A stretch of DNA of 41,650 bases from a virus. Lineage: Duplodnaviria > Heunggongvirae > Uroviricota > Caudoviricetes. The position numbers and the translations under genes were made by a program. Positions within the stretch are counted from its first letter, which is position 1; every line of letters begins with the position of its first letter. Positions 1 through 40,642 of the stretch are shown one piece after another. The stretch covers positions 1-41,650 of IMG/VR virus record IMGVR_UViG_2778261458_000005; one strand, 5' to 3'. Under the pieces are notes generated by a model. It ran no database searches and had not been told where the DNA came from. It saw only the letters and a program-made list of their open reading frames with translations.

Positions 1-201
1 TTACCCATTGGCGCGGGTTAAGAGCTTATTTTTGAATTCACAATGGTCACGATATAACCATCTTGCTCGCCCGTGGATAACTTTGGCTTTTGGCAGGTCG
101 CCGGACTTAATCCGGTCATAGATGAAGGTTTTACCAAAGCCAGTATCAGCCATGATGAATTTCAAATCAACCAGTGAATCAGGCTGTAGTTCGTGTTGCA
201 T
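1..201 (-). CDS. torI: Recombination directionality factor (excisionase), AlpA/TorI family
   Basis: 66-aa ORF with AlpA-type HTH (LKFIMADTGFGKTFIYDRIKSGDLP); matches my recollection of E. coli KplE1 TorI; GGAG RBS 9 nt upstream; last gene of the leftward early operon. Confidence 0.75.
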   Translation of the reverse strand: MQHELQPDSLVDLKFIMADTGFGKTFIYDRIKSGDLPKAKVIHGRARWLYRDHCEFKNKLLTRANG

Positions 202-1209: not shown

Positions 1210-1303
1210 AAAACAAAACTCGCCGTAGCGAGTTCAGATAAAAGAAATCCCCGCGAGTGCGAGGATTGTTATTCACCTTTGACGGCAAGTTGCAGGTTAG
1301 CCA

Positions 1304-1531
1304 TCACTCATCATCCTCATCCCAATCATCATCGTTATCGTCAACCGCCCATAACAGTGGGTTGGTACCTTTGCTTATCTGGCTTGCATATCCGCTACGT
1401 CCAAGGCTTCTCAACACGTTGTATATTTCAAACATCTCAGTGCGTTCATCGCCAATGTCTAGCTGGCAGGCCAGTGCGTGACACTCTGAAGCGAGCGAGG
1501 CTAACTTTTGGAGGAATTCTTGTTTACTCAC
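1304..1531 (-). CDS. Hypothetical small protein with acidic C-terminal tail
   Basis: GTG start with AGGAGG RBS; C-terminus DDNDDDWDEDDE; overlaps the upstream stop (GTGA). Confidence 0.5.
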   Translation of the reverse strand: MSKQEFLQKLASLASECHALACQLDIGDERTEMFEIYNVLRSLGRSGYASQISKGTNPLLWAVDDNDDDWDEDDE

Positions 1532-2436
1532 GGATTCACCTCCTGCGGTGGTTCTGGTAGCGGCATCCAGTGAGTTACGTCATCCAAGATATTTCCTGAT
1601 AAATACGTGAAAGCTCTATATTTTTTGTAATCAATTGGATTTACAACCCAGTTCCAATATGCGGCCACGATTTCACCTTGACTAAATGCCAGTAACATTT
1701 TGGTGTCTTCCGGCATTCGCTCACTACAGCTTATCCAACCATCCGGAGTTACCGGAACTTGCGGAATGGCTGTCTGCTCTCGAACGTCATTAGGCGCTAT
1801 AGGTTCTGCTGCCAACTGACTGGCATATTTGTTAATGGTAACGATAAGCTCTTGCTCAGCCTCATCCAGACAATCACCGATACCTCGCCTGTCACCGTCA
1901 AAATCATCGAAATCGGCACGAATCTTGGCAACCTTCTGGATTGCGGACAACACCTCACTAGGAATTACCGGATAGTTGGTTGACGTTTCCGCGATTTCCC
2001 GAAAATTACTGGTTGACGAATTCTTGTTTTCCCGAAAGTTTCCGGACTGAAGCATAGCGGCACGGCAGGAGTTCCAGCCAGCTGTTCGCCCAAGAGCGTA
2101 AACTTCAGATGGCTCAAGATAATCAATGTCATGCCCGTCCTCATCGTCGTTCTCAGGTAATGCAGCAGGTACTACCGGTACTGGCGGAGCGGCGTAGACT
2201 TCAATAATCCCATTATCAATAGGCCATTCTCCATCCTTGAGATAGTCACTTGTGCCGTCAACTTGCTGTTCAGCAATGTGGAATGCACCAACTGGCTCTG
2301 CCTCAAGCGAGGCCAGTGCAATTCGTGCCAGTTCCCTAAGATTTTCGCTATATGGTGAAGTATTATCACGATTGATTATGTGATTAGCTGTATCTATGAG
2401 AACTTGCTTTTGTTCTTCTCTGTTCATAGTGGTCAT
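1528..2436 (-). CDS. Hypothetical phage protein with C-terminal DUF551-like region
   Basis: Start taken at internal ATG 2436 (GAGAG RBS, adjacent to upstream stop); C-terminal W...WMPLP motif resembles DUF551. Confidence 0.55.
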   Translation of the reverse strand: MTTMNREEQKQVLIDTANHIINRDNTSPYSENLRELARIALASLEAEPVGAFHIAEQQVDGTSDYLKDGEWPIDNGIIEVYAAPPVPVVPAALPENDDEDGHDIDYLEPSEVYALGRTAGWNSCRAAMLQSGNFRENKNSSTSNFREIAETSTNYPVIPSEVLSAIQKVAKIRADFDDFDGDRRGIGDCLDEAEQELIVTINKYASQLAAEPIAPNDVREQTAIPQVPVTPDGWISCSERMPEDTKMLLAFSQGEIVAAYWNWVVNPIDYKKYRAFTYLSGNILDDVTHWMPLPEPPQEVNP

Positions 2437-2437
2437 A

Positions 2438-3070
2438 TCACTCTCCTTTGATGCGAATGCCAGCGGCGCGTGGCACATTAACTTCCACGATGCGCACAGT
2501 TGGTTTGTACATCTCAATCGCTGTCAGCCAGTCAGCGCCGGTCATATGCTTTTCTGCATCGCCATTAGTCCATTGAACCGGCACACCAATAGCTTTCATC
2601 GCAATTTCTATTTCCCCGGCAATGGCGCTTTTCCCGCAACCAGTAAAACCAGAGACAACGACAAGAACTTCGCCTTTGGCTGGTTTTATTTCCCGTGCTT
2701 CCAGTTCAGCAATACGCTTACTCCCATCCGAGATAACACCTTCGTAATATTCACGCTGCTCGTTGAGTTTTGATTTTGCTTCCTCAAGCTCAACACGCAG
2801 TTTCCCTACCGTTAGCGCAATATCCTCGTTATCCTGATCGCGGCGTTTTATGTATTGCTGGTTTCTTTCCCGTTCATCCAGCAGCGCCAGCACGGTTTCT
2901 GGTCCGGTCAGAAATTTGAAGGCGTTGAGCGCATCAATATCCACACCGTAATCCTTAAGTTCCTGTTCAGTTAACAAATCATCATCAACTGGCAACATTA
3001 ACAGGCGTTCCATTGCTGGAATTGCACGTTCCGCCGCCTCGCGCAGTTCTTGATAGTTAATTTCGCTCAC
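2438..3070 (-). CDS. Hypothetical coiled-coil protein with a Walker-A-like motif
   Basis: GFTGCGKS fits GxxxxGK[ST]; charged helical N-half; ATGA overlap with the next gene. Confidence 0.55.
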   Translation of the reverse strand: MSEINYQELREAAERAIPAMERLLMLPVDDDLLTEQELKDYGVDIDALNAFKFLTGPETVLALLDERERNQQYIKRRDQDNEDIALTVGKLRVELEEAKSKLNEQREYYEGVISDGSKRIAELEAREIKPAKGEVLVVVSGFTGCGKSAIAGEIEIAMKAIGVPVQWTNGDAEKHMTGADWLTAIEMYKPTVRIVEVNVPRAAGIRIKGE

Positions 3071-3624
3071 TGGATGACTCCTTTACGAAGCTGTTCAGCG
3101 ATATCTTCGAGAACGCCATCAGAGAATGAGCGGTCAAAATCTCCTTCCGGCGCATTAGCCATAAAATCAGTAGAGGTAAGAATCATCTGGGCAATATCCT
3201 CGGCGTTCTTCGCAGTATCATCAATAAAACCAACTTTCCAGGCAGCCAGCATTCTGTTCGCCACAAAGTAAGCGCCCTCCTTGCGTGCTTCAGTCTTCAC
3301 TTCAGCCAAGAAAGCGTCGGTGGCTGGGGTTTCAGTAACATCATCTTCCCATTCGCTAAACTCCTCACGACAAAGGTCATTAAATTCCTTCTCAGATTGC
3401 TTAAGCGAGGTATTTTCTGCAGCCATCTTCGCGCATTTAGCCTCAAGGTTATCAATCGTGATTCCAGCAGAACGACACTCCCGCAACGCCGTTTCTAGTT
3501 TTGATTCAAGTTCACCGAACTTACGCACCAGATATTCAGCGTTTGTTTCGTTAACCTTTAAATCTCGTGGGAAGCATTTACCTTTCAGAAAACCATCCAT
3601 CTCAATTAGTGACATTAGTTTCAT
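3067..3624 (-). CDS. Hypothetical early-left protein
   Basis: ORF-track start 3642 is GTG; preferred ATG at 3624 overlaps the stop of a small upstream ORF (ATGA). Confidence 0.5.
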
Positions 3625-3785
3625 TTCTTCCCACTCCGCCACATAGCATTCAGATATTTGTTGTCATTAACAGAACCGAAACTATTTCTCTTAAGCAATT
3701 CCTCTCTCGATGGCATTGGCTTTACGCGTTGGCGAATAATCATTTCTGCCGGAAGAATGCCGGGATTGTATGCAAGTCCTCTCAT
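3621..3785 (-). CDS. Hypothetical small protein (54 aa), below the ORF-track cutoff
   Basis: ATG with AGAGGA RBS 7 nt upstream; stop overlaps the downstream start. Confidence 0.35.
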
Positions 3786-3801
3786 GGTAAATTCCTCTTT
3801 G

Positions 3802-4116
3802 TTAATTTATTCGTATGCCTGTTCTCTCTTCATCGAGTTTTTTTAGCTTGTATCGCATAGCTCTTACTGAATAAATTGAGCGGCAGGTTGCAATTGCTAT
3901 TTCTTCTGCGGAGAAATTACCGAAAAGTGATACTTCGGCTCTTGTCCAGCGTCTTCCACGAAGTCGGCTAACAATGTCAGCGCCAATCCTTGTTGCTTTC
4001 GCCATTACTGCTTTTTCAGTCCTTTCCAGTTTTTCAGCGATAACTTCAACTGGCATTGTCGCCGCCACTTCGCGCAAGAAATCGACTTCCCATTTCTCCC
4101 ATGGAGTCTTTTTCAT
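3802..4116 (-). CDS. Hypothetical protein with possible C-terminal HTH
   Basis: 104-aa ORF filling the gap in the leftward operon; weak RBS. Confidence 0.45.
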
Positions 4117-4127
4117 AGGCGATACCG

Positions 4128-4610
4128 TTATTTGATAAGAAGTGAAGGTTTCCCAACTTTGAGTTGAGCGCCGGGGATATTTATTCCTGCTTTTAGTTGG
4201 TGTTTGATTGCCAGTTTGTCGGCTTTAATTGTCGTTTCAAACTCAACGTATTCAGGAGGAAGGGCGCTTGAGTCGATTATTTCTACAATTTCTGACGGTT
4301 TGCGAATTGTTACCTGGTGAATACCTGCTCGAATCTTTTTCTTGCCAACCATTTCAAGCGATGACGCTATATATGCCATAATGCTGTCAATCTTATTTTG
4401 AATTACTGCGGCTCTCTCATTTAGTGACTTTGCCTCTTCCTTGAGGCGTTCAGCATAACCAGATTCATTTTTAATAATGGCGAGAAGTTGCTCTATTTTA
4501 TCGGTAAATTCTCCTTCCATGCCTTCTATTGTGTCAGCAATCATCTCTGGCTCTAAATCTGAATCCATCAATTTTGCGTATTCATTGGCAATTTCATACA
4601 GTTTGCTCAC
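4128..4610 (-). CDS. Recombination-associated coiled-coil protein (Sipho_Gp157-like, tentative)
   Basis: Start taken at GTG 4610 with GGAGG RBS; immediately downstream of RecT as is typical for this family; family assignment from memory only. Confidence 0.5.
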   Translation of the reverse strand: MSKLYEIANEYAKLMDSDLEPEMIADTIEGMEGEFTDKIEQLLAIIKNESGYAERLKEEAKSLNERAAVIQNKIDSIMAYIASSLEMVGKKKIRAGIHQVTIRKPSEIVEIIDSSALPPEYVEFETTIKADKLAIKHQLKAGINIPGAQLKVGKPSLLIK

Positions 4611-5505
4611 TGGCAACCTCCAGTTTCGCTTTGCATTCTATGTAAATGGCTTGTACTTTCTGCTGCAATTTCATTCCAGATGTCAGGCGATATGCTTCTG
4701 CAAAATTTCGCTTCAAATCATCCATGTTTTCAGCCTGAGCCATTTCATCACAAAGAAGTTGTGCTTTTTCCATAATTTCCTGCTGTCGTTTCCGTTCATC
4801 TTCGCGGATATCTTCCTCTGATTTGTGCGGCATAACTGGTTCAGTCCACACACCTTCTTCTTCGTTTAGTACGTGAATAGCACTATCAAGACGTGATGCC
4901 TTAGGCCAATACTTGCTTGCACGCTTTACGACCGTCTTTCGCGCCATCTCATTCCAGTGATTTACCCATGGTCCTTTATCGCTGAATGCTGCCTTGCTTG
5001 TTTTCCTTACAGCCTCAATTTCAGCCAGACTCATCTCTTCCGTTAGATAATCACCTGCTGGCGTCTTAACTGTGCAGTAAACGCCAACAATATCACCACG
5101 ATCACCGAAGGCGTTGTATTTATGGGTTGGTGCTTTATCAAGCCCGTTTGACTCATAGGTATCGTTAGCATGAACAAGTTTTGCCTGACCCCATGAGATA
5201 ACACCAGACTCCATTGCAATATGGAGCAATCCCATATAACTGATATCAAGGTACACCATGCCGTCGCGCGGAACCAGATAAGCCAGTTTGCTAGCCGGGT
5301 TTAAGGTGATACCGATCGCCGCAACATTGATGATGGCGTTCTGTGCGCTGGTTGGATTTGCCAGTGCTGTTTTAGCCAGGTAATCATTTTTCTGGAAATA
5401 CTGAATTGCAAACTGGCTTTCCTTAGCCCATGTCACCGTCTGTTCAGTCAATGCTCCGCAGAATAACTGCTCTTGCTGTTTAACGAATTCAACGATATTG
5501 CTCAT
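4594..5505 (-). CDS. recT: RecT-family single-strand annealing recombinase
   Basis: 303 aa; conserved RecT core (NPTSAQNAIINVAAIGITLNP...); GGAGAAG RBS. Confidence 0.85.
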   Translation of the reverse strand: MSNIVEFVKQQEQLFCGALTEQTVTWAKESQFAIQYFQKNDYLAKTALANPTSAQNAIINVAAIGITLNPASKLAYLVPRDGMVYLDISYMGLLHIAMESGVISWGQAKLVHANDTYESNGLDKAPTHKYNAFGDRGDIVGVYCTVKTPAGDYLTEEMSLAEIEAVRKTSKAAFSDKGPWVNHWNEMARKTVVKRASKYWPKASRLDSAIHVLNEEEGVWTEPVMPHKSEEDIREDERKRQQEIMEKAQLLCDEMAQAENMDDLKRNFAEAYRLTSGMKLQQKVQAIYIECKAKLEVASEQTV

Positions 5506-15202: not shown

Positions 15203-15277
15203 GGGTCAGTCGTATAAAGGTCATTACGGAAGGCTGTTAACCTTCTTATCGTGGTTCGAGTCCACGCTGTCCCGCCA
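15203..15277 (+). tRNA. Phage tRNA, atypical; anticodon GUU (Asn) if the fold is correct
   Basis: Manual fold: T-arm CGTGG-TTCGAGT-CCACG, anticodon stem GAAGG/CCTTC with loop CTGTTAA, 3' GCCA; one acceptor mismatch and a compressed D-arm. Confidence 0.45.
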
Positions 15278-15282
15278 AATAT

Positions 15283-15358
15283 GCTGGTTTAGCTCCAATG
15301 GTAGAGCGGTCGCCTTGTAAGCGAATGGGTAGCGGTTCAAGTCCGTTAACCAGCACCA
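15283..15358 (+). tRNA. Phage tRNA, anticodon UGU (Thr) by manual fold
   Basis: Perfect acceptor stem GCTGGTT/AACCAGC, D-arm GCTC-CAATGGTA-GAGC, anticodon loop CTTGTAA, T-arm AGCGG-TTCAAGT-CCGTT, 3' ACCA. Confidence 0.7.
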
Positions 15359-27430: not shown

Positions 27431-28131
27431 TGGTTGATTCATCACTGAATGATCCTGTCGTGGTTCAGGCTACGCGCCTTGATGCTTCAATTTTGCCACG
27501 CAATATATTCAGCCAGTCTTACCTGCTGTATGTCATAAATCAGGGTGCTGATGTCGACGCAATTGCCGGGAAGGCAAACCAGGCTGGTCAGGGCGCTTAC
27601 GATGCTCAGGTGAAAAACGATGAACAGGACGCCGAACTGGCAGATCACGATTCAAGAATCACCGCAAACACAAAAGCGATAAATATCCTTGAGGTCAGGT
27701 TAACAACTGCCGAAGGGAAGATAGTCGTACTGCGTAGTGATGTTGATTACTTGCTGGATGAGGTTATCGATATTCAGGCGCATCTGGTCACTGTTGACCA
27801 AAGACTGGATGACGTAGAAAGCGATGTATCTGACATTAAGAGTGATTACGTATCGAAAACCGTAACCGAATCGCAGTCTCTTGCGTCATCGCTGGATGTA
27901 AAAACATCATATTCAGTTGATGGAATTCAGGTTGTTGGAGAAAGAAATACCGGATGGACTGCAGCCACAGGTACGCCACTTCTTGGCTCATTCAACGCTA
28001 ACCAGTCATACACTGTCGGCACTACGTACACACAATCCGAAGTCGCAGCTCTCGCTACAGGTTTGCAGCAGGCGCGGCAGCGTATTCTGGCGCTTGAAAC
28101 GGCACTTAGATTACATGGGCTGATTGACTGA
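27430..28131 (+). CDS. Tail needle protein (P22 gp26 type)
   Basis: 233 aa; N-terminus [28 protein letters not shown] and C-terminal LQQARQRI matches gp26. Confidence 0.85.
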
Positions 28132-35306: not shown

Positions 35307-37676
35307 ATGACAGACATTACAGCCAATTTTGTAGTGAGTATGCCATCGCAACTCTTCACTATGGCGCGTTCTTTTAAAGCTGTAGCTAATGGCAAAATTT
35401 ATATCGGAAAGATTGATACTGATCCGGTAAATTCAGAAAACCAGATTCCGGTTTATGTAAGGAGCGAAGACGGTTCTCATATTGCCGTCTCACAGCCAAT
35501 AGTTATCAATGCGGCTGGATACCCGGTATATAACGGACAGATTGCCAAGTTCGTAACTGTGCAAGGCCATTCTATGGCTGTTTATGATGCATATGGTGCA
35601 CAGCAGTTCTATTTCCCGAATATACTGAAGTATGACCCGGATCAACTACTTGCTGAATTGTCAGGTCCATGTGGATCTGAAATGATTGGACGACCGGGTG
35701 GTGGAACTGTAGCAGATGTGATGCCATTAAAGGTCGATTTAAACATTCATGTACCATCAGATTATTCTTCACTGTCCGAAGCTCTGTTAAGTCTACATGA
35801 CAAACGATTTCCTGATACGAAAGTTAACATCACCGTCGCTCCCGGACTGTACACTGAATCAGCTACGTTACCTTCGTCGCACATTGATGGTGAAAACATC
35901 AATATTACAGGTAACACACAGGTATTCACCGCATCCAGAGTAAATTCTGTGGTTGCAGGAACATTCTCAGTTAAACATTGGGATGGTGTAGTAAAAAATC
36001 TAAACTACCACATAGTTACAGCCACCGTAACAGGAGCTATTCCTCAAGTTGGGGAATACGTTCTCGTGCGTGGAGCGTCTGGTGCAGATACAGCAGAATA
36101 TCATCTTGGTGTATGGGAGGTTACTTCTGTTACAGGTAACCAAGTAACTTGGCTCACATCTCTTAATTCAGCGCCTCCTGTTGGTGACATTTCCCTGACT
36201 GGTTCAATACTGAAGACAGTAATTCATTTTCTTGACTCAGCGAAGGGACCAACTGCAGTTATGGTGGAGAATTCATTATCACTTGGAATGATTAACGGTA
36301 TTGCGTTTGTTGGTGCAGCGCGTCCGTTAGCATCAGGAAGTCGTGGACCTGATAAATATGACGTTTTTGGTGGGTATGGCGGCAATACTGGTATTGTGGC
36401 TAGAGATGGCGGTGTTCTCAACTTGGGATCAGATATAGGCGTTAGCGGGTTTTCCGGATCTAACGTTTATGCGAATCGCAGCGGGACCATTGTTGTCGGG
36501 ATTGGTGCTGCTTCCAGTAATTCAGCACGCAACGGTTGGGGATCCGCTTCTGCAGTTACCCAGTGCCAAGGGGTAATTTCCTCAGGTAACCTCATTGATG
36601 GTGTTATTGCTCAGGATACGGGATTTACTTTCGCCCCTAAATCTCGCTCATACGGGAACCACCGTCATGCATATGTAGCGTCAGGTGGCGCATCATTAAA
36701 CATGGCTAATTCTGTTGGGCGTGGAAATATAGGAAATGGCATTGATAATATTAACTCTACAGTGCTTGCAAATGGATGCGTAATAAGAGGCAACGTCGGC
36801 ATGGCAATAAATAATGCTGCCGGTCAGACACGTATGCCTAACAGTGATTTACGCAATAATTCCGGAGTTGTATGCTCCCTGCATGGTTCTCTAAATATTA
36901 CCAGCTCAAACTTAGATGGAGTTTCAGTTAGAGCAGTTTCTGGAGGTTTCATTGACGTTACTGGGGCAACTGGAGTTGCTACTTATACTCCCGTGCGTAA
37001 TCACTATTCTGTTTTTGGCGGTTTTATTTCAAGCGGCACTGCTCAGGATTTCATTGGGTTTAGTTCTACAGGAAGTAATTCAGTTATGCGCCTTTCAGGA
37101 GATAACCACGTTTTGATAGGAACAGCCGCAGATCTTGCTGGACTTCATGGCGCTCGCCTTCACTGTAATGGTCCAGCAGTATTTGCCGGTGATATTTATC
37201 CTTCGACAGATGCGACCAATAATATTGGATCAGCTTCATTGCGAATGAACATTGGATTTTTCGCGGGAGGAACGCAATCTAGTTCAGATGGCAGGCTTAA
37301 GGACCCAACAAGACCATTCAATCAGGCGGAAATGAATGCAGCAAAGCGACTAGCTGAAAAAATTGGATTCTGGACATGGATTGATGATGAAGAAAAACGG
37401 CTACATGCAGGCATGACTGTCCAGACTGTTCTGGAAATCCTTAACGACGAAGGACTTGACTGGAGGAGATATGGGTTCATAGGTTACGACAAATGGGATG
37501 ATGTTTTTGAGCCGGTGATTCGCGAGTTACCTGACGGTTCTAAGGAGGATTCTGGAGAAATTAAGATTGTTAGGGAAGCTGGCGATCTTTGGCAATTCCG
37601 CGATCAAGAACTGGACAGGTTTATTATGAGGGGGCTTTCTCAGAGACTAAGTGAGTTAGAGTCAAAACTTTCGTAA
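35307..37676 (+). CDS. Tailspike: P22 gp9-type head-binding N-domain, divergent beta-helix receptor domain, C-terminal chaperone-like domain
   Basis: N-terminal ~110 aa match the P22 tailspike head-binding domain; middle is Gly/Asn/Ser-rich with repetitive beta-helix character; last ~130 aa resemble the self-cleaving chaperone domain of endosialidase/T5 fibres (SSDGRLKD). Confidence 0.85.
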
Positions 37677-37680
37677 ATAT

Positions 37681-37731
37681 CCCACCACCCACCAATTATA
37701 TTTACACTGCGATTTTTGGTGGGTGGTGGGT
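37681..37731. terminator. Perfect 15-bp inverted repeat hairpin between convergent tailspike and cargo genes
   Basis: CCCACCACCCACCAA / TTGGTGGGTGGTGGG with a 21-nt AT-rich loop; further GGTGG repeats to about 37750. Confidence 0.5.
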
Positions 37732-37755
37732 GGTGGGTGTGGTGGAGACAGGATG

Positions 37756-39015
37756 CTAAACAAGTGATTTTTTTAGTTTGTCTAATCTTTCATTTCTAAT
37801 CCTTATTCCATCTTCAAGTGTATTTTTAAGGGCGTCAACGAACGCCTTATTTTTTGGGCTTAGTTTCAATGCCGTGGAAAAATCATACTCTGCTTTGTCA
37901 TAATTACAAACATCCCGGTAGGCTAGGCCTCGCTGAAAGTAAGCTGAGGACAGCTTGGGATCAATTTCTGTAGCACGAGTTAATGATTTAATAGCATGCT
38001 CATATTTCTTATCCATTCTCAAACAGACTCCTAACTGTAGGTGAATTTTTGAGAAATCAGGGCATAGCTCTAATGCTTTATGTTGAGAGCTAATGGCTCC
38101 ATTAACATCTCCAGCTAAAAGCTGTGAAACTCCTAAAAAATACCATGCAGCCCCTGAGTCTGTAGCTAATGAAACGGCGCTGGAGGCTGCCTCAACAGCA
38201 TCAAGATAGTTTTTATTTTTTATATATTTATCGCACAGCATAATAAAACCAACTGCCTTATGGTTGGAATGTAAGCTGCCAGAGTTTGGCATGAAAGGTA
38301 ATGATTTTCCTTCAACAAATTCTGTTGATAACTTTAGTAATCCGTATTCTTTATTTATATAGTAAGCAGATGAATGTGCCTGATCTGTCAGAGTGTTCAC
38401 CAGACATCCTTTCACTGATGCAACTCTTTGAGCGTTGAATAAATCTGTTACATCCATCTCACCGGAATAAATATATGATTTAGATTTTGAATTTAACATT
38501 AAAGGCATGAGGTCTGGGAATTTCCTTGGCGAAGTATCTGGCATATTAATTTTAGACCTGCTTCCTGGTTGGTCCAGCAAAGTCTCTGGATCAAATGCTA
38601 ACGCATAAGCGTTTAACTTGCATCCAAAAAGCAACGCCCCATATCCACCCATGCTACTTCCCATGGTATATATCTTGTCAGCAGAAATAGTTCTAGCTAA
38701 GGATAAAATGAATTCACATGACTCATCAACAGATGATCCCATCCCCGGTATTCCATTTTGATACCATCCGTTATTAGCGTCATTAACATACAAAACATCG
38801 TACGGGAAATGAGTTAGAGTGTTGAAAAAAGTAAATCTTCCAGCCGGTATCTTCATGCTTGAAAATACAACCAGTAACTTACCATTGATGCTGCCACGCT
38901 GAAGAAGGAAATAGTCAGAGATAAATCCTTCATCAGGAATAGTTAATTTATACATATAATCAATACTATCGTAGTTGTCACTAAAAAATCCGAATTTTAT
39001 AGCGGTATGAGTCAT
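37756..39015 (-). CDS. Cargo gene: alpha/beta-hydrolase-like domain fused to C-terminal TPR repeats
   Basis: 419 aa; nucleophile-elbow motif GSSMGG in N-half; three or more TPR-like repeats in C-half; visibly AT-rich; no signal peptide. Confidence 0.7.
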   Translation of the reverse strand: MTHTAIKFGFFSDNYDSIDYMYKLTIPDEGFISDYFLLQRGSINGKLLVVFSSMKIPAGRFTFFNTLTHFPYDVLYVNDANNGWYQNGIPGMGSSVDESCEFILSLARTISADKIYTMGSSMGGYGALLFGCKLNAYALAFDPETLLDQPGSRSKINMPDTSPRKFPDLMPLMLNSKSKSYIYSGEMDVTDLFNAQRVASVKGCLVNTLTDQAHSSAYYINKEYGLLKLSTEFVEGKSLPFMPNSGSLHSNHKAVGFIMLCDKYIKNKNYLDAVEAASSAVSLATDSGAAWYFLGVSQLLAGDVNGAISSQHKALELCPDFSKIHLQLGVCLRMDKKYEHAIKSLTRATEIDPKLSSAYFQRGLAYRDVCNYDKAEYDFSTALKLSPKNKAFVDALKNTLEDGIRIRNERLDKLKKSLV

Positions 39016-39072
39016 TGATCAATAAATCCAAGTGATTTATTGATAGGATTACATGGTCTACATATTACAAAA

Positions 39073-39092
39073 TACTGTATTTACATGCAGTA
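39073..39092. promoter_or_regulatory. Candidate LexA (SOS) box TACTGTATTTACATGCAGTA
   Basis: Matches the E. coli LexA consensus TACTG-N10-CAGTA with an AT-rich spacer; about 58 bp upstream of the cargo-gene start, overlapping a possible -35/-10 (TAATAT). Confidence 0.5.
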
Positions 39093-39248
39093 TGTGGTAA
39101 GTTGGTCATCATGTTTTGTTGCATCAACAGAATTGTTTAGCATTTTGGTCATTTTCCATTTATCTATATTGCTCATGACCAAAAACTGAGACAAACAAAG
39201 CTTTGCACTGGATTGCAAGGCTTTATGTCACTCGATAGTTAAGGTCGA

Positions 39249-40406
39249 TCACTCCACCTTTTCATCAACCCAATCCGCCCACCACTGCATCATTTCTCTG
39301 CGCTTATCGAGATACTGAGCATGGTTGTAAATTCCACGTACAGATCCGCCATTGGCATGTGCCAGTTGCACTTCAATAGCATCAGCAGGCCATTCGTGCT
39401 CGTTCATAATCGTGCTAAATTCATGCCTGAATCCGTGACCGCTTTCCAGACCTTCATAGCCGATTTGTTTGATCACAAGCAGTACCGCGTTCTCGCAGAT
39501 TGGCTTCTTCTTATCGTTGCGACCGGCAAAAACAAACTCTGACACTGGTTTAGTGATTGAGCTTAGCGTAGTGAGAAGTTCAACCACCTGGTCTGACATA
39601 GGAACCACATGAATTTTGCGTCCCTTCATCACACTGGCGTCGATGGTGATAATCCTGTTTTCAAAATCGACGTTCTTCCATTGCATGGAACGAAGCTCTT
39701 TCGTTCTTAGGACTGTGTAGCGTAAAACTTTGGTCGCAATGAGCGATACGATACTTCCTGAAAATGTTGCCAGTGCTTTATTGAATGCTGGGATCTGGTC
39801 GGCAGGTAAAAACGGGAAGTTCTTCTTGCGGTATCCCTTCATGGCGTCAGCAAGGTCAGGTGCCGGATTATATTTAGCCCTGCCGGTGACAATAGCGTAA
39901 CGGAAAACCTCGCCGCATCTTCTGCGTGCTTTGTTGGCTCGCTCCATTGCGCCGCGATCTTCAAATCTGCGGATTACTTCCAGCAGTTGCATCGGCTCAA
40001 TATCCTGAATTTCAAGGCCGCCGATGATGGGTAAAATGTCGTCATCAAACATTTTTGCAAGTTCAGTCGCATACCCTACTGACCAGACTTGCTTCTTGTG
40101 TTCGTACCATTCCTTGTAAATTGCACTAAAGGAATTGTTGTTAGACGAAGCCTTTTTCGCTTTTACCGGATCGATGCCAACCGAGATGTCTTTCCTCGCA
40201 GTCCATGCTTTATCCCTTGCATCCTGCAAAGTCATAAGCGGATATTTTCCGACAGTCAAGATTTTCTCCTTACCTTCAATCTTGTAGCGAAGCTGCCATA
40301 CCTTTTTCCCGGATACAGGGACATAAAGGTACAGGCCATTACCATCGAGTAGGCGGTATGGTTTTTCTTTTGGCTTTGCTGCTTCAATCTGCTTAACGGT
40401 GAGCAT
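39249..40406 (-). CDS. intS: Tyrosine integrase (P4/IntS type)
   Basis: Start taken at ATG 40406 (385 aa, the K-12 IntS length; ORF-track start 40442 is GTG); N-terminal arm-binding motif KPYRLLDGNGLYLYV; C-terminal catalytic HxxR...Y region. Confidence 0.9.
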   Translation of the reverse strand: MLTVKQIEAAKPKEKPYRLLDGNGLYLYVPVSGKKVWQLRYKIEGKEKILTVGKYPLMTLQDARDKAWTARKDISVGIDPVKAKKASSNNNSFSAIYKEWYEHKKQVWSVGYATELAKMFDDDILPIIGGLEIQDIEPMQLLEVIRRFEDRGAMERANKARRRCGEVFRYAIVTGRAKYNPAPDLADAMKGYRKKNFPFLPADQIPAFNKALATFSGSIVSLIATKVLRYTVLRTKELRSMQWKNVDFENRIITIDASVMKGRKIHVVPMSDQVVELLTTLSSITKPVSEFVFAGRNDKKKPICENAVLLVIKQIGYEGLESGHGFRHEFSTIMNEHEWPADAIEVQLAHANGGSVRGIYNHAQYLDKRREMMQWWADWVDEKVE

Positions 40407-40567
40407 GGGTAAAAATCCGGTGGGTAAAATTATTTTATCCACTTTTTACCCGTCATGGAGTGCGGCTGTCAACGATCTGACGCGAACCATTACGAACTGC
40501 TAATCTACGGAAGGCTTGATATTCATGGGATTTTGCGGACTGGTACGGATGGTAGAGAACTGATAAA

Positions 40568-40642
40568 TGGTGTCCCCTGCAGGAATCGAACCTGCAATTA
40601 GCCCTTAGGAGGGGCTCGTTATATCCATTTAACTAAGAGGAC
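40568..40642 (-). tRNA. argW: tRNA-Arg, anticodon CCU
   Basis: Minus strand folds as a 75-nt tRNA (GTCCTCTTAGTTAAATGG...GGTTCGATTCCTGCAGGGGACACCA), anticodon loop CCTCCTAAG; matches E. coli argW as I recall it. Confidence 0.9.

Follow-up and report, generated by a model that had tools for sequence, protein, structure and literature searches.

A cargo gene in the tailspike–integrase slot of an argW prophage: a predicted CsaC-like O-acetyltransferase preceded by a putative LexA box

Which function is served by the single gene between the tailspike and integrase genes of a P22-like Escherichia coli prophage, and how is its expression controlled? We investigated this question for a stretch of 41,650 nucleotides (positions 1 to 41,650 of IMG/VR record IMGVR_UViG_2778261458_000005, hereafter the window), in which such a prophage is complete and inserted at argW, beside yfdC. 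An initial annotation, made from the sequence alone, had described an open reading frame (ORF) of 419 amino acids (aa) in the integrase–tailspike slot. We confirmed this gene in the ORF list at 37756..39015 on the minus strand, where it starts with ATG and encodes a two-domain protein of 46.6 kDa, between the tailspike gene (35307..37676) and the integrase gene (39249..40442). It is referred to as the cargo gene in the following analysis. The right end of the prophage reads antirepressor, tailspike (plus strand), cargo gene (minus strand), integrase of the IntS/Sf6 type (minus strand), argW and yfdC.

We propose that the cargo protein would act as a cytoplasmic glycan O-acetyltransferase similar to CsaC, the capsule O-acetyltransferase of Neisseria meningitidis serogroup A, that it would convert the receptor of its own phage, and that its gene would be repressed by LexA. 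Taken as a whole, this proposal is one in which we place about even confidence. It draws directly on the predicted fold, the conserved catalytic residues, the similarity to CsaC, the genomic context and domain fusions of the homologues, the linkage of slot and tailspike, and two LexA-type boxes.

The catalytic domain and its similarity to CsaC

AlphaFold models the full-length cargo protein with a predicted local distance difference test (pLDDT) score of 90.2 and a predicted template modeling score of 0.86; residues 1-30 are disordered. The initial annotation had recognized a hydrolase with a GSSMGG motif in the N-terminal half and tetratricopeptide repeats (TPRs) in the C-terminal half, and both halves are borne out. 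An α/β-hydrolase catalytic domain occupies residues 31-250 (38266..38925, minus strand), in which the GSSMGG nucleophile elbow occupies residues 119-124. The TPR domain covers residues 251-419 (37759..38265, minus strand) and consists, according to Pfam, the model and Foldseek, of about four to five repeats and a long capping helix. Four Pfam families exceed their cut-offs here (TPR_1, TPR_2, TPR_8 and TPR_11), the repeats span about residues 255-395 (TPR_2, E=7e-22; TPR_1, E=1e-20), and the model shows paired helices at 252-385 followed by a helix at 390-418. Structural matches of this domain are consensus TPR proteins, MamA and the TPR domain of OGT. The cargo protein shows neither a detectable signal peptide nor a membrane segment; its top 19-residue Kyte-Doolittle window reaches 1.0.

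Since TPR matches swamped the Foldseek list of the full-length model, the N-terminal domain was also modeled and searched separately (pLDDT 91.4). Structure prediction gives it an α/β-hydrolase fold. Already with the full-length model, the first match outside the TPR proteins is CsaC. The best three structural matches are CsaC, MPT51 and Ag85A, and the best two annotated sequence matches are CsaC and Asp2. In a comparison of the family profile of the N-terminal domain with 177,635 sequences of the Protein Data Bank (PDB), CsaC is again the top match (E=8e-5, 25 bits, 115 positions), with Asp2/Gap2 a few places lower. These profile results suggest a weak but specific homology of the cargo family to CsaC. 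Two possibilities raised at the outset, namely that no hydrolase fold would be found or that the ORF would turn out to be a fragment of a known gene, did not come true: the fold is predicted, and the fragment explanation was rejected on the basis of full-length homologues with the identical two-domain architecture.

An alignment of 11 family members, on which all conservation figures are based, revealed ten invariant residues: W84, G119, S121, M122, G123, G126, A127, L129, D191 and H214. The elbow G119-S-S121-M-G-G aligns with G112-S-S114-K-G-G of CsaC, so that the profile alignment pairs the invariant S121 (codon at 38653..38655, minus strand), the predicted acyl-accepting nucleophile, with S114. 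It further pairs E144 (Glu in eight and Gln in three of the 11 members) with Q138, D188 (Asp or Glu in all) with D198, and D191 (Asp in all) with H201. The profile alignment ends short of H228 of CsaC; the invariant histidine of the family is H214. Judged from the alignment, S121, H214 and an acid, either D188 or D191, form a Ser-His-Asp triad in canonical order. In CsaC, the corresponding residues form a bifurcated catalytic network that is required for transfer, and Q138 recurs in uncharacterized proteins with a nucleophile elbow (PMC7501274).

CsaC (also SacC or MynC; PDB 6YUO; PMC7501274) therefore shares with the cargo protein the α/β-hydrolase fold and the GSS-x-GG elbow, and it is the best match among solved structures by both structure and profile. 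With H214 taken as the counterpart of H228, conserved residues of the cargo family fall on each of the five positions of the S114/H228/D198/H201/Q138 network. Both proteins are soluble and cytoplasmic, in case of the cargo protein by prediction, and homologues of the latter are found in capsule loci. They differ in that the cargo protein is only 19% identical to CsaC, carries Glu or Gln at the position of Q138 and Asp at that of H201, is encoded by a prophage, and possesses a TPR domain of 170 aa for which CsaC has no counterpart. A signature GxSxGG together with a Ser-Asp-His triad has been described for a class of α/β-hydrolase capsule O-acetyltransferases, which comprises CsaC, OatC/CssE of N. 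meningitidis serogroup C and the predicted ORF5 of E. coli K15 (PMC7387560). The cargo protein shares these features; for OatC/CssE and K15 ORF5 the likeness is one of published description, and no TPR domain is reported for either, unlike the cargo protein. Asp2, which O-acetylates N-acetylglucosamine of streptococcal serine-rich repeat glycoproteins (PMC5578698), belongs to the accessory Sec system and offers a further example of a sugar-acetylating domain of the α/β-hydrolase type, as proposed here, in a different domain architecture and biological system.

Annotation databases give little beyond the repeats. For the N-terminal half, no Pfam or NCBIfam model scores above cut-off, and PHROGs match the TPR part alone. 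Sub-threshold matches around the nucleophile elbow include Asp2, the XcbB/CpsF capsular family and esterases. The acetyltransferase and glucosylation families known from conversion genes (AT3 Oac, hexapeptide NeuO, GtrABC) have no Pfam, NCBIfam or PHROG match in the cargo protein.

Two points weigh against reading the enzyme as an acetyltransferase. Within the α/β-hydrolase fold, sequence does not separate transferases from esterases, and the margin of the CsaC match over ordinary esterases is small. In addition, the residues of the second arm of the network are chemically unlike those of CsaC, with Glu144 in place of Gln and Asp191 in place of His. Because of this small margin and these differing residues, the statement that the protein works like CsaC appears better supported than the statement that it is a member of the CsaC family. 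The enzyme could instead be a hydrolase, with the TPR domain used for targeting. It might act as an esterase on a glycan or glycan precursor and strip off O-acetyl or other acyl groups, or it might cleave another ester or a lipid. We consider this unlikely, since the structural and sequence matches named above are acyltransferases or members of their families, and since E/Q144 and D191, which occupy transferase-specific positions of the CsaC network, are conserved. The genomic context bears on the same alternative, as described below.

Homologues, slot and linked tailspike

Relatives of the cargo protein are numerous. Word-indexed protein searches first returned 11 and later 87 of them, all unnamed or annotated as "tetratricopeptide repeat protein". 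The resulting impression of a tiny family was overturned by an exhaustive profile search, which raised the number into the thousands: 408 clusters (at 50% identity) at E<=1e-30 and 3,336 at E<=1e-10, mostly of 370-420 aa, a length that corresponds to the two domains.

The cellular homologues are located in polysaccharide loci, mostly those for nonulosonic (sialic-like) acids. Two of them (P0008 and P0010) lie directly behind two genes of the KpsC/KpsS type (PF05159), together with a pathway of NeuB, a PglD-like protein and a CMP-transferase. P0012 is flanked by two neuB genes, again with a CMP-transferase. The locus of P0025 from Poseidonocella contains NeuB, a CMP-transferase, an ABC-2 transporter, GT8, sulfotransferases and KdsA. 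P0018 adjoins a GT8/MptE-like protein and a hexapeptide transferase, and P0007 is found next to GT2 and GT1 genes and a TPR-GT29-like protein. The CTP_transf_3 family is represented among the loci of P0012, P0025, P0018 and P0007. This clustering with nonulosonic-acid genes parallels OatC, which acts on a sialic acid polymer. One viral contig of 67 kb (L031) departs from this pattern and counts against the proposed function: three tandem paralogues (396, 403 and 391 aa) at 1240..5074 adjoin PLD-like/DnaJ and leucine-rich-repeat proteins, a context that does not look like polysaccharide synthesis.

Domain fusions point in the same direction as the cellular loci. The long relatives (P0162, P0238, P0248, P0198, P0116 and P0115) carry extra domains attached to the hydrolase-TPR unit, namely the capsule-synthesis domain PGA_cap (in three proteins), an N-terminal SGNH/GDSL acylhydrolase, a hexapeptide acyltransferase or a second copy of the hydrolase-TPR unit. 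Neighbors and fusion partners of the homologues are thus biosynthetic, which argues against the esterase alternative.

Several named families are touched by weak matches. NCBIfam NF033892 (XcbB/CpsF) matches 10 of the 11 members, at best with E=6.6e-8 and centered on the nucleophile elbow; at 24-26 bits, where the cut-off is 125, and with only about 35 residues aligned, the phage protein is not a member of that family. Asp2 is matched by seven of the 11 members with 11-27 bits, under the cut-offs of 28 (Pfam) and 211 (NCBIfam). Four family members weakly match UPF0227, the Pfam family that is also reported for K15 ORF5. Among the proteins of 50,697 phage records, the sole relative is a 200-aa hypothetical protein of the Synechococcus phage S-H9-2 (MW147367.1, 104290..104892; L017). 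This cyanomyovirus protein is related to the catalytic domain, with 33% identity across 127 residues, and has no TPR domain. At the DNA level, neither 5,426 complete E. coli genomes nor the same 50,697 phage records contain the cargo gene; the integrase end alone matches.

The position of the cargo gene is one that conversion genes are known to occupy. Its layout of tailspike, cargo and int in an argW P22-like prophage matches that of Sf6 (oac), CUS-3 (neuO) and vB_EcoP-611R6 (an OafA-type O-acetylase). In Sf6, the tailspike gene is followed by a terminator, oac on the opposite strand, the oac promoter and int, and the cargo gene shows equal position and orientation. The occupants of the slot known so far are glycan O-acetyltransferases of two other folds. 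Oac of Sf6 is an AT3 membrane O-antigen acetylase and NeuO of CUS-3 a hexapeptide-repeat polysialic acid O-acetyltransferase; both would share with the cargo protein the role of acetylating the glycan bound by the phage's own tailspike, while their folds are unrelated to it. That the other characterized occupants examined (oac, neuO and the OafA type) add acetyl groups is a further argument against an esterase.

The adjoining tailspike (789 aa; 35307..37676, plus strand) combines, according to Pfam, a P22 head-binding N-terminus and a C-terminal S74 intramolecular chaperone with a novel, receptor-binding center. For this center we found no close relative in the 50,697 phage records (best match 25.7% identity, tail fiber of phage IMM-002), and it shows no similarity to the pectate-lyase-like neighbor of homologue P0004. 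A tailspike of 789 or 790 aa adjoins the cargo gene in every enterobacterial copy for which flanking DNA is available, that is, in the window, in five E. coli prophages near ybhB/bioA and in Yersinia intermedia. Between E. coli and Y. intermedia, full-length identity is 71% for the tailspikes, and the cargo proteins are 51-58% identical.

In the five other E. coli genomes (L001-L005, 9700-10000), tailspike and cargo gene are found at a prophage end beside ybhB/bioA, the lambda attB region, and ∼65 bp from the very end of an integrase gene of the argW type are kept upstream of the cargo leader. The two genes therefore seem to have moved between prophages by recombination, carrying the 3′ end of the integrase gene along. 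Homology of the window to other argW prophages stops near 39160, and hence the leader belongs to the cargo module. Base composition also sets the cargo gene apart. The initial annotation had called it more AT-rich than its flanks, and its GC content is indeed 37.5% (33.5% in the upstream intergenic region), compared with 44.5% for the tailspike gene, 46.4% for int and 47.2% for the window. At third codon positions (GC3), cargo and tailspike agree with values of 0.32 and 0.33, versus 0.50 for int. Based on the tailspike linkage, the shared low GC3 and the end of homology, tailspike, cargo gene and box-bearing leader appear to behave as one mobile module. Such a pattern would be expected for a conversion enzyme acting on the receptor that its own phage uses.

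The initial annotation had also left room for a role in host modification, defense or abortive infection. Here the two parts fared differently: structure, profiles, neighborhoods and fusions speak for modification of a surface polysaccharide, and no defense family of PADLOC-DB 2.0 matches the cargo protein at E<=1. An anti-phage defense or abortive-infection system, in which the TPR domain senses a phage component and the serine hydrolase is a toxic effector released by the SOS response, could account for the location in a prophage accessory-gene hotspot and for the AT-rich, foreign DNA. TPR domains act as sensors in some defense proteins, and SOS control would fit a stress-triggered function. 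Such a system is nevertheless very unlikely. Besides the lack of a PADLOC match, the cellular homologues are found inside polysaccharide biosynthesis loci and not in defense islands, the fusions are to capsule-synthesis and acyltransferase domains, and the strict linkage to one tailspike type across genera fits receptor modification.

The LexA-type box and the promoter region

The second part of our proposal concerns regulation. The initial annotation had noted a match to the LexA consensus about 58 bp upstream of the cargo gene. We recovered it as the predicted LexA-type SOS box TACTGTATTTACATGCAGTA at 39073..39092, 58 bp upstream of the ATG at 39015, both by pattern and by weight matrix. The pattern TACTG-N10-CAGTA occurs once in the window, compared with an expectation of 0.03 (3 of 100 shuffles). 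A LexA weight matrix made from E. coli sites, which serves as an indication and is not a curated one, gives the box a score of 19.8, around the median for known sites; this value was reached by one of 200 shuffled windows, and the next best site of the window scores 12.1. The heterology index of the box, calculated with a site list that is likewise not curated, is 5.5-6.7. The right half-site reads GCAG and not ACAG, so that an exact match to TACTG-N10-CAGTA goes along with one mismatch to CTGT-N8-ACAG. The second-best site, CGCTGGATGTAAAAACATCA at 27890..27909, lies within a virion gene, recurs in the prophages L001, L002 and L004, and is probably a chance match.

A second box was identified at the diverged homologue P0003 from a sediment metagenome, whose N-terminal domain is 61% identical. 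Its sequence, CACTGTACAAAATTACAGTG (L025:491-510), differs from the box in the window and is a perfect CTGT-N8-ACAG match, located 3 bp ahead of the annotated start and ∼95 bp ahead of an alternative Met codon. Within 327 kb of homologue loci, the uvrB operator is the only other site that scores at least 13; it was in the training list of the matrix, and its match therefore shows just that the scan works. Near L025:259, we also noted the decamer TACTGCATGT, which is identical to the E. coli half-site and forms CTG-N11-CAG with the wrong spacing. Because a second, independent box is present in a homologue as diverged as P0003, the case for LexA control is strengthened, and from these two predicted sites we regard LexA control of the cargo gene as probable.

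The palindrome could also be a chance or relic site, with the cargo gene expressed constitutively like other conversion genes, an alternative that is independent of the enzyme question. A number of observations are in its favor or weigh against LexA control. The sequence of the box does not vary among the E. coli copies, which is uninformative for copies that are ∼99% identical, and one of its half-sites is off consensus. The matrix scan found no box at the Yersinia homologue nor at 12 other homologues on viral contigs. The box of P0003 is placed in a 28-bp gap to a divergent ORF of 68 aa (L025 279..510 for ORF and box together), a Cys-rich protein without Pfam match, and could equally serve that ORF. 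No convincing σ70 promoter overlaps the box in the window, and a stricter scan upstream of the ATG finds none. Finally, a conversion gene under LexA repression would be largely silent in lysogens, an unusual state for genes of this class. On the other side, a site of this strength is found in ∼0.5-3% of shuffled 41.6-kb windows, yet here it falls into the 233-bp leader of the cargo gene; another box, different in sequence, lies within 25-115 bp of the start of the 61%-identical homologue, for which we estimate a chance of ∼2e-4 (a rough value scaled from the shuffles); and no LexA-like site is present in the slots of CUS-3, Sf6, HK633, vB_EcoP-611R6 and JEP4. We therefore treat a non-functional palindrome as a real possibility, if not a likely one.

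For LexA control, the operator should overlap the promoter of the gene or follow it closely. The hairpin with a T-rich tail just past the integrase stop codon (39181..39224, minus strand; RNA fold -16.2 kcal/mol, z=-2.3) is probably the int terminator and would shield the cargo gene from int transcription. The cargo gene should therefore require a promoter of its own. Within its promoter-containing leader (39016..39180, minus strand), the weak candidate TTACCA-17-CAGTAT (39100..39072), with about 7-8 of 12 hexamer matches, encloses the box. The initial annotation had instead suggested a –10 element TAATAT at the box. This element (39062..39067) is not supported as part of a promoter: it does not underlie the box but follows it at a distance of 5 bp on the downstream side, an acceptable –35 partner is lacking, and the remaining E. 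coli copies have TAATGT instead. A promoter-like site at 39022..38994 was judged spurious; it overlaps the start codon, and the region is poorer in promoter-like matches than its shuffles. The GGA spacing of the first ATG of the cargo gene equals that of the Yersinia gene.

LexA-repressed genes of mobile elements include those of colicins, tum of coliphage 186 and the antirepressor genes of Gifsy phages, and they serve induction or killing. Like these genes, the cargo gene has a CTG-N10-CAG motif, here a predicted operator, close upstream. In contrast, the neuO and oac loci have no LexA-type box, and neuO is phase-variable via heptanucleotide repeats. Literature searches for SOS-controlled conversion genes returned nothing equivalent, and no LexA-controlled glycan-modifying conversion gene was found reported. 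Phage Kapi1 shares the logic of the slot without such a gene.

Proposed mode of action and further features of the prophage

Based on these observations, the following mode of action can be formulated, in which the choice of acetyl transfer over hydrolysis, the substrate, the binding of LexA and the biological benefit are inferred. Ser121 would take the acetyl group from acetyl-CoA to give an acetyl-Ser121 intermediate, from which His214 would pass it to a sugar hydroxyl. Asp188, Asp191 and Glu144 stand at the positions of the D198, H201 and Q138 network of CsaC. The TPR domain would bring the enzyme to the machinery that assembles the polysaccharide, or to the polymer itself. The substrate would be a nascent repeat unit of the host capsule or O-antigen, possibly containing a nonulosonic acid, and the modified glycan would most likely be the one recognized by the co-inherited tailspike. 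The outcome would be lysogenic conversion or receptor masking, as with oac of Sf6 or neuO of CUS-3, through a third and unrelated fold. Host LexA bound at 39073..39092 would repress the gene, and its cleavage during the SOS response would release it, timed with the induction of a P22-like prophage.

That a CsaC-like O-acetyltransferase repaints the receptor glycan of its own phage at the time of the SOS response is offered as a speculation that may well not hold. In that case, induced cells, or the fraction of lysogens with an active SOS response, would cease to display the unmodified receptor. Debris and kin would then no longer trap progeny virions, or antigen and phage receptor would come to vary across the population. 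Serotype-conversion genes would thereby gain a third regulatory logic, beside phase variation by Dam/OxyR and by repeat slippage.

Both phage-borne O-acetyltransferases in this slot and α/β-hydrolase capsule O-acetyltransferases are known already. What would be new is the way the two are combined, the fusion to a TPR domain and the large family without a name; the predicted SOS control would be the foremost novelty. Since O-acetylation of capsules and O-antigens alters serotype, vaccine epitopes and phage susceptibility, several consequences would follow if the proposal is correct. Phages would have recruited a third, unrelated enzyme fold to one conversion slot. A function could be proposed for a large family annotated merely as "tetratricopeptide repeat protein", and the cargo protein would be the first characterized member of this hydrolase-TPR family tied to nonulosonic-acid glycans. 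Surface-glycan modification would be tied to the DNA-damage response, so that SOS-triggering antibiotics could shift antigenicity and phage sensitivity. The tailspike and predicted modifying enzyme shared by Escherichia and Yersinia constitute a testable pair for finding the phage receptor.

On the other side of the cargo gene, a 15-bp GC-rich hairpin (CCCACCACCCACCAA / TTGGTGGGTGGTGGG) was identified by RNA folding between the convergent tailspike and cargo genes (37681..37730). With -29.9 kcal/mol and z=-4.0 on the cargo strand and z=-3.0 on the opposite one, it resembles a bidirectional terminator, though without a clear T-tail. Past the cargo stop codon (37681..37750), we noted short repeats of the CCACC/CCCACCA type that partly form the 15-bp stem; its loop of 20 nt is unusually large.

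The integrase (39249..40442, minus strand), which forms the boundary of the slot, is assigned by Pfam as a tyrosine integrase of the IntS/Sf6 type and resembles the integrases of Sf6, CUS-3 and HK633. Its target is argW, encoding tRNA-Arg(CCT) (40568..40642, minus strand; tRNA search and Rfam). A 16-bp att core, GGAATCGAACCTGCAA, is present in two copies (221-236 and 40582-40597), and the flank with yfdC matches E. coli chromosomes at 99% identity. The whole locus is found exactly in the E. coli genome GCA_002485785.1, with an identical cargo protein at the same argW/yfdC site. Further carriers of the cargo gene include the genome GCA_012453345.1, Escherichia marmotae and Y. intermedia.

An Rfam scan of the window returned nothing beyond tRNA. 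Within the prophage, two tandem tRNAs, Asn(GTT) and Thr(TGT), are located at 15203..15358. At the far left of the window, the left copy of the att core is preceded by an ORF for a TorI-like excisionase (66 aa; 1..201, minus strand). In a simple reading, this ORF is placed outside the core-to-core prophage; the annotation of Sf6 has a torI homologue across attP. The placement of this ORF may reflect a tandem element, a remnant element or a different layout of attP.

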